Positions 16,396 to 25,343 of a DNA stretch of 64,000 nt are shown here, in pieces. Numbering within the stretch: the stretch's first letter is position 1; each line of letters opens with the position of its first letter. Source of the DNA: Escherichia coli (GTDB lineage Bacteria; Pseudomonadota; Gammaproteobacteria; Enterobacterales; Enterobacteriaceae); assembly GCF_002854065.1 (NCBI RefSeq), contig NZ_CP024147.1; one strand, 5' to 3'. A model generated the notes under the pieces. The model was not told the origin of the DNA, did not search any database, and saw only the letters and a list, made by a program, of their open reading frames with translations. The translations under genes were made by a program, and so were the position numbers.

Positions 16396-16405
16396 GACCA
16401 TACAT

Positions 16406-16437
16406 AAAAAAGCCGGGGATAATTCCCCGGCTTTTTT
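16406..16437. terminator. Bidirectional rho-independent terminator between nupC and pdeA
   Basis: A-run, AGCCGGGG-ATAATT-CCCCGGCT hairpin, T-run. Confidence 0.8.
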
Positions 16438-16444
16438 ACGCCTG

Positions 16445-18634
16445 TTAATCAGCTAATGGCTGCGGGCGACCAATCAAATACCCTTGCAGATATTGCACCC
16501 CGAGCTTATGCAATAGCGCCTGCTGCTGTTGCGTCTCAACAAACTCCGCAACCACACTCAATGACTTCGCTTTCGCCAGATCGGTAATTGATCTCACAAT
16601 CATCGCATCCAGCGTATTCGTGACGATATCTTTCACAAAGACGCCATCAATTTTGATGATATCAGCCTGCAAACGCTTTAACCGTTCGTAGTTGGCATAT
16701 CCGGTGCCAAAGTCATCAATCGCAATCCGGAAACCAAACTTATGCAGCTGCTCGATGTTGTACATGCTGCTTTCTGCGTTCGAAAACGCCTGCTCCTCGG
16801 TGATCTCAAGAATGACCGCCTGCGGGGAGATGTGATAACGCTTAAATAGACGAATAATCCGCCCGGCAATATTCTTTTGCAGCAGCGTGAGCGGCATTAA
16901 ATTAACTGAAAAGCGCGGGCCTTTTTTGTCGCAAGGGTGTGTTGCCAGCCACTTCAACAAGGATTCCAGCACTTGCAAATCAAAACGCGCGCTAAGGTTA
17001 AACTGAGCAATAAGGGGCAGAAACTTATCCGGGGTCATAATGCCGCCGTCATATTTCAGTCGCGCGAGGATCTCATCATAACCTTCACCCTCTTTGTTGC
17101 GAATTGGCTGGGCGTAGAGCAGCAAATCCCCCTGATCTAACGCCGTGCGAATGGTATTCAGCAATAGCACTTGTTTAGTGGTCTGCCCGGAAACCATCTC
17201 CTCTCGGCTATCCAGCGCCAGCACATGATGATGTGCGCAGGATTGCTCCGCCAGCCAGCTTAACTGCCCCAACAAGGGTTGCAGGGTTTCCTGATTTCCA
17301 TCAAAACGCCCCCAGGCAGCACCATAGCCCATATCCAGCCCGGTATTGTTCCAGTGAATTTGCCGACTATTCAGGATGTTAACCATATGCTGGAGTCGCC
17401 CTTCCGTTTCCGGCCCGCTCAGCACTAACAGCAGTTCACTACCCGGCAATTGATATAACTTTTCGTTTTCCTGCATCAACGGCAGCAGCGTACGGTAGAT
17501 TGAGCGGATACAGTGAACGCGCATCATTAAGCCGTAATGACGACTCATAAACTCAAGATTATCAATGCGCAGGCAGCAAAAACTCTTGCCCGCCTCTTGC
17601 TCCGGCGCTTGTTCCAACGCACGAAAATTGGGTAGGAGCGTTAACGGATCGGTCAGCGCCTGCAAATGCCAGCGGCGATTAAGCCATTCACTGCGATGAT
17701 AAATGCGCACCATATAGAGCAGGCAAACGCTAAAGGAAATCAGCACCGCGAGAATAAATGCCAGCGAATATTCGGTTTCCACCCCTTGCAAAAAGTTCTG
17801 GTTGTAATTCAGCAGGCAAAGCGTTGAAACAGCCCAAGTGAGATTTAAAAACGGATAGCGAAGCTTACCGACCCCGAGGGTAAAGATGATGAAGAAAACG
17901 GGTACCAGGTAACCGGCAATAAAGTCGTTTTCATAAGGTGTGCACAACAGAAGTAGCAGCACGCTTAACGCTGCCAGCCAGCTTAAGGTAAATGCGCGTT
18001 TCTCTTTGCCCAACGACGGAGCGATATCCCTGCGCCACAATATCTGCGCAAAGTGGGGACTTACAATCATGCGAGTGAGATAGTAGAAAAGCATGTTGTA
18101 AATCAGAACAGCGGTGAAAAGGCTTAGCAAATCAACGACCGTGAAAATGGCATCCGCATCGCCGAAAAAGGTGGATATCTTTAGCGGGAAATCAAAGAAG
18201 CTCCCCACAAGATACATGCTGCATTTGATGCCGATCGGCGTCACCAAACCAAGCCAGAACAGACGTTGCCAGACATATCGGCTGGTCAATCCATAACGCC
18301 AACGCGTCCCCAGCTGCCAGCGTAATATTGCGCAGGCACACAACACGACAAACGTCTGGCTGCCGAGCATGACCGCAGTCTGTAAAAAAGAGAGATGAAA
18401 GTTCCACAGATTGGTGCAAAACATCCCGCATAAAACGGGAACGACACCGCGCCAGCCAAAGATAAACAAGATTGACAGCATTACGCACAGTGGCATCCAC
18501 GCCAGAAAGATATAACTGGAATGGATAATGGCAAGTGGCGAAATAAAACGGGATAGCTGAATAAGTACCACGGTGAGCGTAAACGCTAGTGTGAATATCT
18601 TGATATTTTTTATCAGGTTATGCTCCACAAACAT
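16445..18634 (-). CDS. pdeA: c-di-GMP phosphodiesterase PdeA (YfeA); membrane MASE-like N-terminus plus degenerate GGDEF and EAL domains
   Basis: 729 aa from ATG 18634 (MFVEHNLIKNIKIF); EAL motifs near C-terminus. Confidence 0.85.
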   Translation of the reverse strand: MFVEHNLIKNIKIFTLAFTLTVVLIQLSRFISPLAIIHSSYIFLAWMPLCVMLSILFIFGWRGVVPVLCGMFCTNLWNFHLSFLQTAVMLGSQTFVVLCACAILRWQLGTRWRYGLTSRYVWQRLFWLGLVTPIGIKCSMYLVGSFFDFPLKISTFFGDADAIFTVVDLLSLFTAVLIYNMLFYYLTRMIVSPHFAQILWRRDIAPSLGKEKRAFTLSWLAALSVLLLLLCTPYENDFIAGYLVPVFFIIFTLGVGKLRYPFLNLTWAVSTLCLLNYNQNFLQGVETEYSLAFILAVLISFSVCLLYMVRIYHRSEWLNRRWHLQALTDPLTLLPNFRALEQAPEQEAGKSFCCLRIDNLEFMSRHYGLMMRVHCIRSIYRTLLPLMQENEKLYQLPGSELLLVLSGPETEGRLQHMVNILNSRQIHWNNTGLDMGYGAAWGRFDGNQETLQPLLGQLSWLAEQSCAHHHVLALDSREEMVSGQTTKQVLLLNTIRTALDQGDLLLYAQPIRNKEGEGYDEILARLKYDGGIMTPDKFLPLIAQFNLSARFDLQVLESLLKWLATHPCDKKGPRFSVNLMPLTLLQKNIAGRIIRLFKRYHISPQAVILEITEEQAFSNAESSMYNIEQLHKFGFRIAIDDFGTGYANYERLKRLQADIIKIDGVFVKDIVTNTLDAMIVRSITDLAKAKSLSVVAEFVETQQQQALLHKLGVQYLQGYLIGRPQPLAD

Positions 18635-19613: not shown

Positions 19614-20006
19614 ATGAAAAGATTACGCAATAAAATGACCACCGAAGAACTGGCTGAATGCCTCGGTGTGGCTAAACAAACTGTTAACCGTTGGATCAGA
19701 GAAAAAGGCTGGAAAACGGAAAAATTTCCCGGCGTGAAAGGCGGTCGTGCCAGACTTATTCTGGTCGATACGCAAGTTTGCGAGTTTATTCAGAACACGC
19801 CAGCCTTCCATAACACACCGATGCTTCTGGAAGCCGAAGAACCCCTTGCCGAATACGCACCGGGGATTCGCACTCCTGCTTATCGGCAAATCATAAGCGC
19901 AATAGACAACATGACTCACAGTGAGCAGGAAAAAGTTGCGCAATTTTTGTCACGCGAAGGAATTCGTAATTTCCTTGCTCGTCTCGACATAGATGAATCA
20001 GCTTGA
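19614..20006 (+). CDS. yfeD: YfeD, small HTH DNA-binding protein
   Basis: 130 aa (ELAECLGVAKQTVNRWIREKGW), tandem paralog of yfeC. Confidence 0.85.
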   Translation: MKRLRNKMTTEELAECLGVAKQTVNRWIREKGWKTEKFPGVKGGRARLILVDTQVCEFIQNTPAFHNTPMLLEAEEPLAEYAPGIRTPAYRQIISAIDNMTHSEQEKVAQFLSREGIRNFLARLDIDESA

Positions 20007-21754
20007 CATCCTCCACGCCCTGAATGACGAGGATCCCTGCTACGTTCAGGCTGTCGCCTGAATCATTTCGGTGGGTTCCTGCTTCAACGAGTGGCCTGAC
20101 TGCACCATCTCTCCACAGGCAAGAACGGCGTGCCCCGCCGCTAAAATGTTACGAGCGCCGTTTACATCGGCGTTCGCTGTATATCCACATACCTGGCATC
20201 TGAATTTACTTTGTGACAGGCGATTTTCTTTCGCTGTATGACCACAGCACGCGCAACGCTGGCTTGTGTACGCTGGCGGAACAGCAAGCACCTGACCGCC
20301 TCGCCAGAGCTGCTTGTACTCAAGCTGGCGGCGCATTTCATACCAGCCCTGATCCAGTATCGAACGGTTTAAACCTGATTTTGCCCGGACATTGCGCCCC
20401 GGCTGGCTGACCGTACCCGCTGCTGACTTTGACATGTTGCTGACCTTCAAATCCTCAATGACTATCATTGCGTGGTTTTTGCTGACGGTCGTTGTGACTT
20501 TGTGAAGGTAGTCTCTGCGGATATTTGCGGTACAGGAATGCAGTCGCTGTATTTTGCGTTTCTGCTTCTGCCAGTTATTGCTGAATTTGACCTTGCGGCT
20601 TAACTGTCGCTGAAGTCTCGCCAGCTTCTTCTGGTTTTTCTGAAAACTGTTTACAGGCTCAAAGACTGTGCCATCTGACAGCGTGGCGAGTTTAGCCACG
20701 CCAGCATCCAGTCCGACCATTGATGCTGAAGGGTGAACCGGAGTTGATACTTCACTTTCTGTCTGAATACTGATGTACCACTTACCGCAGGACTGGCTGA
20801 CAGTGACATTTTTCACAACACCCGTGACCTGACGGCTGTTCCGGTAGCGCATCCAGCCAAGTTTCGGCAGAAAAATACGGCTGTTTTCCTGATCGAGCTT
20901 AACGCCCTGCGGGTAGCGGAATGCATCATTCTGTCCCCGCTTTTTGAATCGGGGAAAAGCAGCCCGCTTCCGGAAGAAGTTTTTGTAAGCCCGCTCAAGG
21001 TCTTTCAGTGACTGTTGCAATGGCTGTGAGGGCGAATCTTTAAGCCATTGCGTTTCAGTGGCATTTTTCCACTCAACCAGCCAGGAAGCCATTTTCCCGT
21101 AAGGGATGTATTTATTACCGGCCTCATGATTCTCATTCTGACGTGCCAGAGCACGATTGAAAACGAAACGACATGCGCCTGCGAAGCGCCTCATTTCACG
21201 CTCCTGTTGACCAGCGGGTCTTAACTGGAATTTAAATGCCTGTAGTCGTTTCACAGGCCAAATGATACTTTGGTCTATGAATAAAGAAACCGATATCCGA
21301 CGGGGAAGGCATTGTGTTTTCCTGATGCATGTTCATCTGGTCTTTGTCACCAGATACCGACGTCAGATTTTTGACTATGACGCGACAGAAAAACTACGCA
21401 CTTACTTTTCAAATGTATGTGCTGATTTTGAAGCTGAACTGGTTGAAATGGATGGCGAACCAGATCACGTCCATTTGTTAATTAACTATCCTCCCAAACT
21501 GGCGATATCCAGTCTGGTAAACAGCCTCAAAGGCGTATCGGGTAGGTTACTGCGACGAGATCGACCAGATATTGCAGTCAGGTATTACTACAAAGGCGTT
21601 TTGTGGAGTCCTGGCTATTTTGCCAGTAGCTGCGGAGGTGCGCCAATATCCGTCATCCGCCAATACATTGAACAACAGCAAACACCTGGTCAGGTGGAAA
21701 ACCGCGCCTTATATCCCCGCCCTGAAGGACGGGGTTTTACGGCGCACCGGATAA
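20007..21754 (-). mobile_element. IS200/IS605-family insertion sequence (IS605-type divergent tnpA/tnpB; possibly IS609-like); boundaries approximate
   Basis: Divergent Y1/HUH tnpA and tnpB fill the yfeD-gltX gap; an 18-nt related motif (CGCCCTGAA-T/G-GACG-A/G-GG) occurs in the same orientation at both ends, as expected for IS200/IS605 subterminal hairpins; gltX terminator lies immediately outside. Confidence 0.7.
20046..21254 (-). CDS. tnpB: TnpB (OrfB) RuvC-like RNA-guided endonuclease family protein
   Basis: 402 aa, GTG start; RuvC-I GLDAGV, Ruv[11 protein letters not shown], zinc finger CACCGH...CQVCG, Ruv[14 protein letters not shown] all present. Confidence 0.85.
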
Positions 21755-21804
21755 ATAAAAAACGGCAGGGGTATCTCTCCTGCCGTTTATCTTTTATGCG
21801 CTAA
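21277..21804 (+). CDS. tnpA: IS200/IS605 TnpA (Y1 HUH transposase), C-terminally extended into flanking DNA
   Basis: HVHLVFVTRYRR (HUH motif) and catalytic-Tyr region VIRQYIEQQ; the ORF has no stop inside the element and reads through the gltX terminator to 21804. Confidence 0.7.
   Translation: MNKETDIRRGRHCVFLMHVHLVFVTRYRRQIFDYDATEKLRTYFSNVCADFEAELVEMDGEPDHVHLLINYPPKLAISSLVNSLKGVSGRLLRRDRPDIAVRYYYKGVLWSPGYFASSCGGAPISVIRQYIEQQQTPGQVENRALYPRPEGRGFTAHRINKKRQGYLSCRLSFMR
21755..21787 (-). terminator. gltX rho-independent terminator
   Basis: On minus strand AAACGGCAGG-AGAGATACC-CCTGCCGTTTTTT just downstream of the gltX stop. Confidence 0.7.
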
Positions 21805-23220
21805 TTACTGCTGATTTTCGCGTTCCGCAATAAAAGCCAGCGCTTTGTTGATACGCTCGATACTGCGGGTCTTACCGATTGCGTGAACGGTAACATCCAG
21901 TGCTGGAGACTGCCCCGCACCGGTTACGGCGACACGCAGCGGCATACCAACTTTACCCATACCCACTTCCAGCTCATCCGCCGTCGCCTGAATAGCGTGA
22001 TGAACGTTTTCAGCGGTCCAGTCAGTAATCGCGGCCAGTTTGTCACGAACCACTTCCAGCGGCTGACGCGCTACCGGACGCAGATGTTTTTTCGCCGCAT
22101 CGGCATCGAACTCAGCAAAATCTTCGTAGAAATAACGGCAGCTCTGTGCCATCTCTTTCAGCGTCTTGCAGCGTTCGCCCAGCAGTTTCACCAGATCAGC
22201 CAGCTGCGGGCCGTTACGGGTATCGATATTTTCCTGCTCAATGTGCCACTGTAAGTGAGTAGCAACATACTCCGGCGGCAGCGCGTTAATGTAGTGATGG
22301 TTCAGCCACAGCAGCTTGTCGGTGTTGAACGCACTGGCAGATTTGCTGACGGCATTCAAAGTGAAGTATTTGATCATCTCTTCACGAGTGAAGATTTCCT
22401 GATCGCCGTGGGACCAGCCCAGACGCACCAGATAGTTCAGCAGTGCTTCTGGCAAATAACCGTCATCACGATACTGCATTACGCTGACTGCCCCGTGACG
22501 TTTGGACAGTTTTTTGCCGTCATCGCCGTTGATCATAGAAACGTGCGCGTAAACCGGTACCGGCGCTTTCAGGGCTTTAAGAATATTGATCTGGCGTGGC
22601 GTGTTGTTGATATGGTCTTCGCCACGGATAACGTGGGTGATTTCCATATCCCAGTCATCGACAACCACACAGAAGTTATAGGTTGGGGAACCATCGGTAC
22701 GGCGGATAATAAGATCGTCCAGTTCCTGGTTGCTGAACTCGATCGGACCACGGATCTGATCGTCAAAAACAACAGAACCTTCCTGCGGGTTAGCAAAACG
22801 TACGACACACGGCTCATCATCAGCGTGATGCTCATGACTGTGGCGGCAGCGACCGTCATAACGCGGCTTCTCACCTTTCGCCATTTGCTCTTCGCGCAGC
22901 GCTTCCAGGCGCTCTTTAGAGCAATAGCATTTATAAGCAGTGCCCTCTTCCAGCATCTGATCGATCACCGCGTTGTAGCGATCAAAACGTTTGGTCTGGA
23001 AGTACGGACCTTCATCCCACTCCAGGCTCAGCCAGTTCATGCCATCCATAATGGCTTCGATAGCTTCCGGCGTGGAACGCTCAAGATCGGTGTCTTCAAT
23101 ACGCAGCACGAACTCACCGCCGTGATTACGTGCAAAAAGCCAGGAGTAAAGAGCAGTACGCGCGCCGCCAACGTGCAGATAGCCTGTTGGGCTTGGCGCG
23201 AAGCGAGTTTTGATTTTCAT
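21805..23220 (-). CDS. gltX: Glutamyl-tRNA synthetase
   Basis: 471 aa, [27 protein letters not shown] (HIGH-type motif) and KLSKR (KMSKS motif). Confidence 0.95.
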
Positions 23221-23876: not shown

Positions 23877-23881
23877 ATGTA

Positions 23882-23907
23882 AAAAAGCGCCCTAAAGGCG
23901 CTTTTTT
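23882..23907 (+). terminator. Terminator of the val-lys tRNA operon
   Basis: GCGCC-CTAAA-GGCGC hairpin followed by TTTTTT. Confidence 0.8.
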
Positions 23908-23940
23908 GCTATCTGCGATTTGTATGATTGATTTTTCTTC

Positions 23941-23967
23941 TCAAGTTCCTTGTTCTTCTACCGATAT
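23941..23967 (+). promoter_or_regulatory. Candidate sigma28 (FliA) promoter for the FlxA-like gene
   Basis: TCAAGTTC-N11-ACCGATAT versus consensus TAAAGTTT-N11-GCCGATAA (6/8 and 6/8, correct spacing), 29 bp upstream of the ATG. Confidence 0.45.
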
Positions 23968-23995
23968 TACCTCGTACAGTGACGAGGACTGAACA

Positions 23996-24337
23996 ATGGC
24001 CACTATCTCTTCAACTTCAATTCCTTCCATACAAACACAGAGTAGTAACAGGGCATCACAAGGTAGCGATGTTGCTTCACAAATCGCGCGGATAAGTCAG
24101 CAAATCATCAAACTCACTCAACAAATTAAAGAGATTGTAGATACTAGCGGCAGTGCTGAAGACAAGCAAAAACAGGCCGAATTGATTCAACAGCAAATCA
24201 CCCTACTGGAAACACAACTGGCGCAGTTGCAGAGACAGCAGGCAGAAAAGGCGCAGGAGAAAGAGCAGCGTTTGTCTCTGAATGTATCCCTTCTAAATCC
24301 TGTTGAAAATACGACTCATATCGATATCTATATCTGA
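23996..24337 (+). CDS. FlxA-like coiled-coil protein
   Basis: 113 aa, Q-rich coiled coil, C-terminal THIDIYI resembling the FlxA family tail, N-terminal Ser/Thr-rich segment; convergent 10-nt overlap with yfeR. Confidence 0.6.
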
Positions 24338-25254
24338 TACAACGGATCCCCTTCCCGACCAGCCATTAGCGCATTGCCCTGGTCTCGTACCACGTCCCAT
24401 AACGCTTCAGCGGCGGTGGAAAGTGAACGGTTCTTCCTGCGCACCAGCATCAACTGGCGTTCAACAACCGGCGTAATGCGCTTTACCACCAGCGGGCTAC
24501 CTTCAGGCAATGGTAGCGCCAGTGCGGGAAGAATACTGATGCCGATGCCTGCGGCTACCATCGGGAACAGCGTCGCCGGATGTCCAATCTCCTGCACAAT
24601 ATTCGCCTGAATACCATTGCGCGCCAGCGCTGCGTCAATCAGCGGTCGGCTGCCTGACGCGTAATCCTGCAACACCAATTTCGCTCCCTGTAATGCCTGC
24701 CAGGGTACATAATCTTCCACGGTCAAAGCGCTATCGCGATGGCAAAGCAGAAAGAAAGGCTCGGAAAGAATCGCTTCACATTGCAGATCGCCCACTGGGC
24801 CTGGATCGATGACGATGCCAAAGTCGACATCTCCCTGGCGAATACTTTCCATCACCCACTGCTGCGGACGATCGTGCAGGACAAACTGAATATCTGGATA
24901 GCGGCGATGGCTTTCAGCAATGCATTGCGGAATAAGATGCGCGGAAATGGTCTGGCTGGCAGCGACCCGAACTTTTCCGCTCAGTTGTTGCCCCATACGC
25001 CCGGTATCGCGCAACGTGCTGTTAAGTTCATCCAGCAGTCGCTCAAGACGCAAAGCCAACTGCTGCCCTGCATCTGTAAGCACCACTTCACGCGTGGTTC
25101 TGTCCAGCAGGCGAACACCAGTATGATTTTCCAGCTCCTTCACACTGTGACTTACTGCCGACTGGCTCAGGCCGATACGCTCTCCTGCACGACTAAAACT
25201 TTTCTCCTGCGCTACTGTGACGAAAACCTTTAATTGTTTTAAAGAATAATTCAT
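24328..25254 (-). CDS. yfeR: LysR-family transcriptional regulator YfeR
   Basis: 308 aa, N-terminal LysR HTH ([23 protein letters not shown]). Confidence 0.85.
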
Positions 25255-25343
25255 CTGTTTTCTTCATGAATGGATGCAATAAATCAATTTTATTTCTCAA
25301 ACTGGAAGAAGCACAATAGAACCATCGATCATCTGGAGTCTTT

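Follow-up and report, generated by a model that had tools for sequence, protein, structure and literature searches.

A complete IS609 element with an intact tnpB between yfeD and gltX of Escherichia coli

Introduction

In E. coli K-12 MG1655, the genes yfeD (end at 2519205) and gltX (end at 2519257) are separated by a spacer of 51 bp, most of which is occupied by a terminator hairpin shared by the two genes. In the E. coli sequence analysed here (64,000 nucleotides, referred to below as the window), two divergent open reading frames, 20046..21254 (-) with 402 codons and 21262/21277..21804 (+), lie between yfeD (19614-20006, +) and gltX (21805-23220, -). This raises the questions of what the additional DNA is, how and when it came to occupy this site, and whether its genes may still be functional. 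The first-pass annotation of this locus had put the K-12 gap at a few tens of base pairs, mainly terminator, and had seen in the two divergent frames an insertion of the IS200/IS605 family that was possibly IS609-like. Each of these statements is borne out by the comparisons presented below.

We are highly confident in the following general picture: the segment is a full-length IS609 placed 3' of TTTAT in the yfeD-gltX spacer, its tnpB is open, its tnpA has an intact core extended by a tail, and the copy probably descends from one old insertion.

Results

Identity and boundaries of the element

The K-12 genome contains a feature annotated as "insertion sequence:IS609" (NC_000913.3 1503161-1504908, 1748 bp), which holds the tnpA pseudogene yncK and insQ. 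This RefSeq feature was used as the reference for naming, the criteria being shared ends and a nucleotide identity of 95% or more. The minus strand of the window element aligns with it from end to end, with 1712 of 1748 positions identical (97.9%); the first bases (CCGGTGCGCCGTAAAACCCC...) and the last bases (...GGCGTGGAGGATGTCAA) are the same in both, and the similarity ceases precisely at the two element ends. Because of this end-to-end match, the equal length and the shared termini, the element is IS609, an ordinary and already catalogued member of the IS200/IS605 family in E. coli, here with an intact tnpB. Several hallmarks of the family are found: a Y1 HUH TnpA, subterminal hairpins, and a fixed target adjoining the left end (LE) that is not duplicated.

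The exact limits were obtained by alignment with the empty site of K-12 (locus L001), in which the junction 7202|7203 corresponds to 20002|20003 and 21750|21751 of the window. The first-pass annotation had given 20007-21754, so that its length was right while its position was 4 nt too far to the right. The element and the features of its insertion site are as follows.

20003..21750, minus strand: complete IS609, 1748 bp (breakpoints fixed to the base by the K-12 empty site; length and termini equal to those of K-12 IS609)
21751..21755, minus strand: target and TAM TTTAT (core TTAT), adjoining LE (TTAT at five independent insertion sites)
20004..20006, plus strand: yfeD stop codon TGA, donated by the right end (RE) of the element (K-12 gca taa against gc|t tga in the window)
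21760..21788, plus strand: pre-existing bidirectional yfeD/gltX terminator hairpin (terminator scan; also in the K-12 empty site)

The top strand of IS609 is the minus strand of the window, with LE at 21750 and RE at 20003. Deleting 20003-21750 gives back the K-12 sequence ...AATCAGC|ATAAATAAAAAAC... exactly, with zero bases duplicated; relative to K-12, the segment is an insertion. The insertion point lies inside the final sense codon of yfeD (GC|A), where RE (TTGAC...) contributes a T and the stop codon TGA, and the YfeD protein (...DESA) does not differ from that of the uninterrupted K-12 gene, despite the insertion within its coding sequence. The TAA used by yfeD in K-12 is now beyond the insert, on its far side, and the terminator hairpin is, after insertion, on the gltX side only. 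A promoter scan returned two sites against 1.7 expected and was uninformative.

Two other differences from K-12 were observed within the window. After the valU-valX-valY-lysV tRNA cluster (approximately 23880-25260), a FlxA-like open reading frame and yfeR follow directly, as in O157:H7, without the xapR-xapB-xapA-yfeN block that K-12 has there. The nupC-pdeA spacer (approximately 16400-16450), in which K-12 has IS186C, contains no insertion sequence, as judged by the identical segment of strain CUWW06.

Ends, target sequence and candidate guide RNA

On the top strand of the element, TTAT is found directly 5' of LE at all five independent insertion sites compared (yfeD-gltX, ydcL-ydcO, the yajI coding sequence, yeaQ-yeaR and tam-lsrG), and the longer form TTTAT at four of them. 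A 2026 study describes the purification of an IS609-type TnpB and its assay on a target composed of a TTAT TAM and a 20-nt guide (PMC12781874, supplement). Terminal inverted repeats were absent, the ends CCGGTGCG... and ...GGATGTCAA not being inverted copies of each other, and each end carries a subterminal hairpin found by DNA folding.

21704..21745, minus strand: subterminal LE hairpin, core CCCCGTCC-TTCA-GGGCGGGG at 21715-21734, outer stem GCGCC/GGCGC
20008..20034, minus strand: subterminal RE hairpin, ATCCTC...GAGGAT around GTCATTCAGGGCGTG, followed by the terminal GTCAA

The DNA fold of the LE hairpin has an energy of -14.7 kcal/mol (z -2.4). A core GTC(C/A)TTCAGGGCG is common to both hairpins, and the termini are kept in five other IS609 copies.

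The 3' end of tnpB and the adjoining flank contain two further predicted features.

20003..20119, minus strand: putative scaffold of the guide RNA (omega/reRNA), extending over the tnpB 3' end and RE (sub-threshold Rfam matches, fold)
19983..20002, minus strand: putative guide GCUGAUUCAUCUAUGUCGAG, in antisense to the final yfeD codons (directly 3' of RE, by the family rule)

Two Rfam models match the sense strand of tnpB in this region. RAGATH-18 covers the conserved CCUGUGGAG...CGUUGAAGCAGGAA at 20076-20119 with 29.5 bits, below its gathering score of 44.9, and HgcC extends over 19992-20113, ending in GGAGGAUGUCAA, with 16 bits against a gathering score of 50. At gathering thresholds, Rfam detected only tRNAs in the whole window, and since the two matches appear only at permissive E-value thresholds, we treat them as suggestive. 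The 230 nt up to RE form an RNA fold somewhat better than those of shuffled sequences (z -2.5). RNAs derived from RAGATH-18 are the guides of IS607 TnpBs (PMC11061315), and HgcC has been tied to RNAs that overlap IS1341-type tnpB genes at their 3' end (PMC4615843). We predict that this region at the 3' end of tnpB is the expected guide-RNA scaffold; the target of the guide complex would be the TTAT-flanked GCTGATTCATCTATGT.

TnpB

20046..21254, minus strand: tnpB (insQ), 402 aa, GTG start, intact open reading frame of the RNA-guided endonuclease family (list of open reading frames, Pfam, NCBIfam, ISDra2 alignment)

In the annotation of an identical genome segment, this gene is insQ (WP_071999256.1). 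Its product scores 382 bits against the NCBIfam model guided_TnpB (NF040570; cut-off 100) and shows the Pfam domains HTH_OrfB_IS605, OrfB_IS605 and Cas12f1-like_TNB zinc ribbon in this order. The best match among natural solved structures is TnpB of ISDra2 from Deinococcus radiodurans (8bf8, 8exa, 8h1j), with an E-value of 1e-54 over residues 3-379 of 402 and the same order of domains. The motifs GLDAG, IEDLK and NADVNGARN align on the Asp/Glu/Asp acidic residues of the ISDra2 RuvC domain (8bf8), which we take to be positions D191, E278 and D361 of that protein. The zinc finger CACCGH...CQVCGY has four Cys residues, and both of its CxxC pairs align to those of ISDra2 TnpB. A protein of about 400 aa with the RuvC triad and the zinc ribbon is thus what the locus encodes. 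The first-pass annotation had claimed that these residues were kept, and the full-length protein confirms it; it had also named a frameshift or truncation of tnpB as grounds for abandoning its reading, and we found neither, the 402-aa frame being open. Judged from its sequence, TnpB would be an RNA-guided nuclease with all catalytic residues in place.

To assess the constraint on both genes, we aligned seven complete copies of IS609, which represent four insertion sites, with codon columns projected on the window sequence. tnpB is open in six of the seven, and its pooled pN/pS in this small sample is 0.31.

The K-12 InsQ protein (NC_000913.3 1503657-1504865) differs from the window TnpB at eight residues. 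Its C336Y replacement removes a zinc ligand in the first CxxC, whereas the window TnpB keeps all four Cys.

A stem-loop with a stem of 6-7 bp (GCCTGT GAAACGACT ACAGGC, 21238-21258, minus strand) encloses the GTG start of tnpB and could serve in translational control of this gene. The divergent starts of tnpB and tnpA are 7-22 bp apart, and an obvious Shine-Dalgarno sequence is absent.

TnpA and its read-through tail

21277..21804 (alternative ATG at 21262), plus strand: tnpA, Y1 HUH transposase (Pfam Y1_Tnp, NF033573, alignment with IS608 TnpA)

The transposase covers the full Pfam model Y1_Tnp (1-121 of 121, E 4e-41) and scores 144.6 bits against NF033573 (cut-off 55). The HUH motif and catalytic-Tyr region reported in the first-pass annotation are present as HVHLL and RQYIEQQ, and both align to the transposase structures of IS608, ISDra2 and Sulfolobus.

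The closest complete relatives, the TnpAs of IS609-like elements in Salmonella, Proteus, Photorhabdus, Klebsiella and Yersinia, are 138 aa long, show 83-87% identity over the whole core and end right after ...YIEQQQTPG/S/D. The E. coli IS609 forms, in contrast, go on into a tail encoded by LE and the flank. In the window, a CAG codon is found where the 138-aa relatives stop, and the frame continues through LE (QVENRALYPRPEGRGFTAHR) into the flanking DNA. The core of 138 codons (21277-21690) is followed by 20 LE codons and 17 flank codons, and the resulting tail of 37 aa reaches a stop beside that of gltX (21688-21804). The first-pass annotation overlooked that a stop codon for tnpA is missing within the element and that the frame closes only at 21802-21804, next to the end of gltX.

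The same read-through is found in the K-12 copy (L003) and at the loci L004 and L007. The IS609 tnpA frame enters whatever flanks the element, and therefore the tail differs from copy to copy; E. coli TnpA entries in the databases vary in length from 152 to 254 aa. PGAP labels tnpA as "incomplete; missing C-terminus" in every E. coli IS609 copy inspected. This pseudogene flag arises because the stop codon is absent and the frame reads through, not because catalytic sequence has been lost, so the automatic label on IS609 tnpA should be read as a lost stop with read-through rather than as a truncation. Across the seven aligned copies, the pooled pN/pS of tnpA is 0.73, and four of the seven have additional stops or frameshifts in this gene.

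Distribution and age of the insertion

We searched 5426 complete E. coli genomes by megablast and with junction-specific queries. IS609 sequence was detected by megablast in 5425 of them, with a median of three places per genome, and plasmids carry it as well. Of the 5426 genomes, 535 contain the yfeD|RE junction and 533 the LE|gltX junction, the O157:H7 lineage being among them; the empty site of the K-12 type is present in 4641, in identity bands from above 99% down to 80-90% to K-12. The insertion at yfeD-gltX is already annotated in hundreds of RefSeq genomes, including O157:H7. Coverage of 80% or more in 4307 genomes had suggested that most strains carry the yfeD-gltX insertion; this was discarded, the junction queries showing that these are mostly copies elsewhere.

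Strain CUWW06 is 100% identical to the window across the element and its flanks, and this is the sole IS609 place reported there. Identities of three other occupied sites to the window are as follows.

O157:H7: IS609 99.0%, left flank 99.1%, right flank 99.5%
SCU-111: IS609 97.8%, left flank 96.8%, right flank 98.4%
GN03551: IS609 97.7%, left flank 97.8%, right flank 97.0%

Three substitutions are common only to the four IS609 copies at the yfeD site. In SCU-111 and GN03551 tnpA has decayed, and in GN03551 tnpB is also frameshifted. Because the divergence of the element tracks that of its flanks, the yfeD-gltX IS609 is probably one old insertion that about 10% of genomes have inherited along with its flanks and that is decaying in certain lineages; the single origin is drawn from four occupied-site copies in an unrooted comparison. 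Being old and present in about 10% of genomes, the insertion is not a recent event.

Discussion

Among known systems, the window element is closest to the IS609 of K-12 (insQ/ydcM b1432 and yncK), with which it shares the divergent, IS605-type gene order and TTTAT at LE in addition to its length and termini. The K-12 copy is located between ydcL and ydcO instead of yfeD and gltX. Its tnpA (yncK) lacks an ATG and is interrupted by an in-frame stop, in contrast to the open tnpA core of the window. Taken with the altered zinc finger of InsQ, the sequences suggest that both genes of the laboratory-strain IS609 are probably defective, which sets it apart from the window copy.

The other two useful comparisons are with IS608 (ISHp608) of Helicobacter pylori and with ISDra2. 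The IS608 TnpA (PDB 2a6m, 2vjv) aligns with that of IS609 at the HUH and Tyr positions with an E-value of 1e-19, and the two elements are alike in their subterminal imperfect hairpins and in a tetranucleotide target that adjoins LE and is not duplicated; in IS608 this target is TTAC. They differ in that tnpA and tnpB of IS608 have the same orientation, while those of IS609 are divergent and tnpA is without its own stop codon. For ISDra2, the analogy of TnpB leads one to expect the same working mode, in which the guide RNA comes from RE and the TAM is identical with the target of the transposon, although tnpA of IS609 is divergent from tnpB. The TAM of ISDra2 is TTGAT, that of IS609 TTAT.

By analogy with these family members, a cycle of transposition and retention may be proposed for IS609. 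TnpA would recognise the subterminal hairpins of the top strand as single-stranded DNA, excise the element as a circle and re-insert it 3' of TTAT, no duplication being formed. Excision would rejoin TTTAT to GCTGATTCATC..., that is, the TAM and the target of the complex between TnpB and the guide RNA of the same copy. This guide RNA would be processed from the 3' end of the tnpB transcript itself and would include about 16-20 nt of the flank. TnpB loaded with it would cut the TTAT-flanked empty joint left after excision, and recombination with a sister copy on the sister chromosome would then restore the element.

It is tempting to go further and suppose that IS609 persists in E. coli mainly by its TnpB/guide-RNA module and not by transposition, because the tnpA stop is lost in all copies examined, tnpB is under purifying selection (pN/pS 0.31 against 0.73 for tnpA), and the yfeD-gltX copy has been in place for long enough that it and its flanks have diverged by 2-3%. 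We regard this proposal as rather improbable. If it were true, strains with a single intact copy would offer a natural setting in which to study how TnpB retains a transposon, and could also show whether the guide antisense to yfeD affects this gene.

The facts may also be read in another way, namely that this IS609 copy is an immobile relic in which TnpA is crippled by its lost stop and tail, and TnpB with its guide RNA may be inactive too. In keeping with this, tnpA reads through LE in all E. coli copies that we examined and is flagged as a pseudogene, its pN/pS is 0.73, and stops or frameshifts interrupt it in four of the seven copies aligned. The window copy has diverged in step with its flanks and therefore has stayed put, and no transposition of the K-12 IS609 was seen in mutation-accumulation lines (PMC5009759), that copy being the one with the in-frame tnpA stop. 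However, IS609 occupies at least five chromosomal sites, a median of three places per genome and plasmids, which implies that elements with the read-through have moved within E. coli. Moreover, the catalytic HUH and Tyr residues of the window TnpA are intact, the IS608 TnpA with its 155 aa also extends well past the Tyr helix, and the pN/pS of tnpB is only 0.31. On balance, we consider the relic a serious possibility, though one that we incline against. Another alternative concerns the direction of the event: the segment could be ancestral at the E. coli yfeD-gltX site, K-12-like genomes having lost it by precise excision. Elements of the IS200/IS605 family excise seamlessly, so an excised site is indistinguishable from one never occupied, and the occupied alleles differ by up to 2-3%, the same as their flanks. 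Nevertheless, the empty site in 4641 of the 5426 genomes, in identity bands from above 99% to 80-90% in this comparison within E. coli, and the target signature of the family at the site speak against such a loss. We judge it to be very unlikely; the first-pass annotation, which had itself named an ancestral segment as contrary to its claim, is not refuted on this point.

The guide segment antisense to yfeD might also recall the domesticated, nuclease-dead TldR-like proteins, which act as RNA-guided regulators outside any transposon; this antisense position is the sole reason for raising the idea, and nothing specific favours it. With the D/E/D triad and the zinc finger intact, and with the gene located beside tnpA between intact LE and RE, such a role is extremely improbable for the window tnpB and was rejected.

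The reading that we prefer, an old IS609 insertion with tnpB open and the tnpA core intact, has little importance beyond annotation, since IS609 and InsQ/TnpB are catalogued and routine in surveys of E. coli genomes. A literature search combining insQ with "RNA-guided" yielded nothing relevant. For testing a native E. coli TnpB, the window copy represents a better start than insQ of K-12, because its tnpA core is uninterrupted and the zinc finger of its TnpB is complete.

Two other arrangements of IS609 were observed in the genomes compared. In some strains (L004/L005, 633-2380), the element lies within yajI, which encodes the SadB/YajI lipoprotein and is annotated there as two pseudogene fragments. 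In strain 2017-02-2CC, the tam-lsrG spacer (L008, 1655-2380) contains a 726-bp derivative that adjoins TTTAT and has lost nearly all of tnpB, with LE, RE and tnpA intact.
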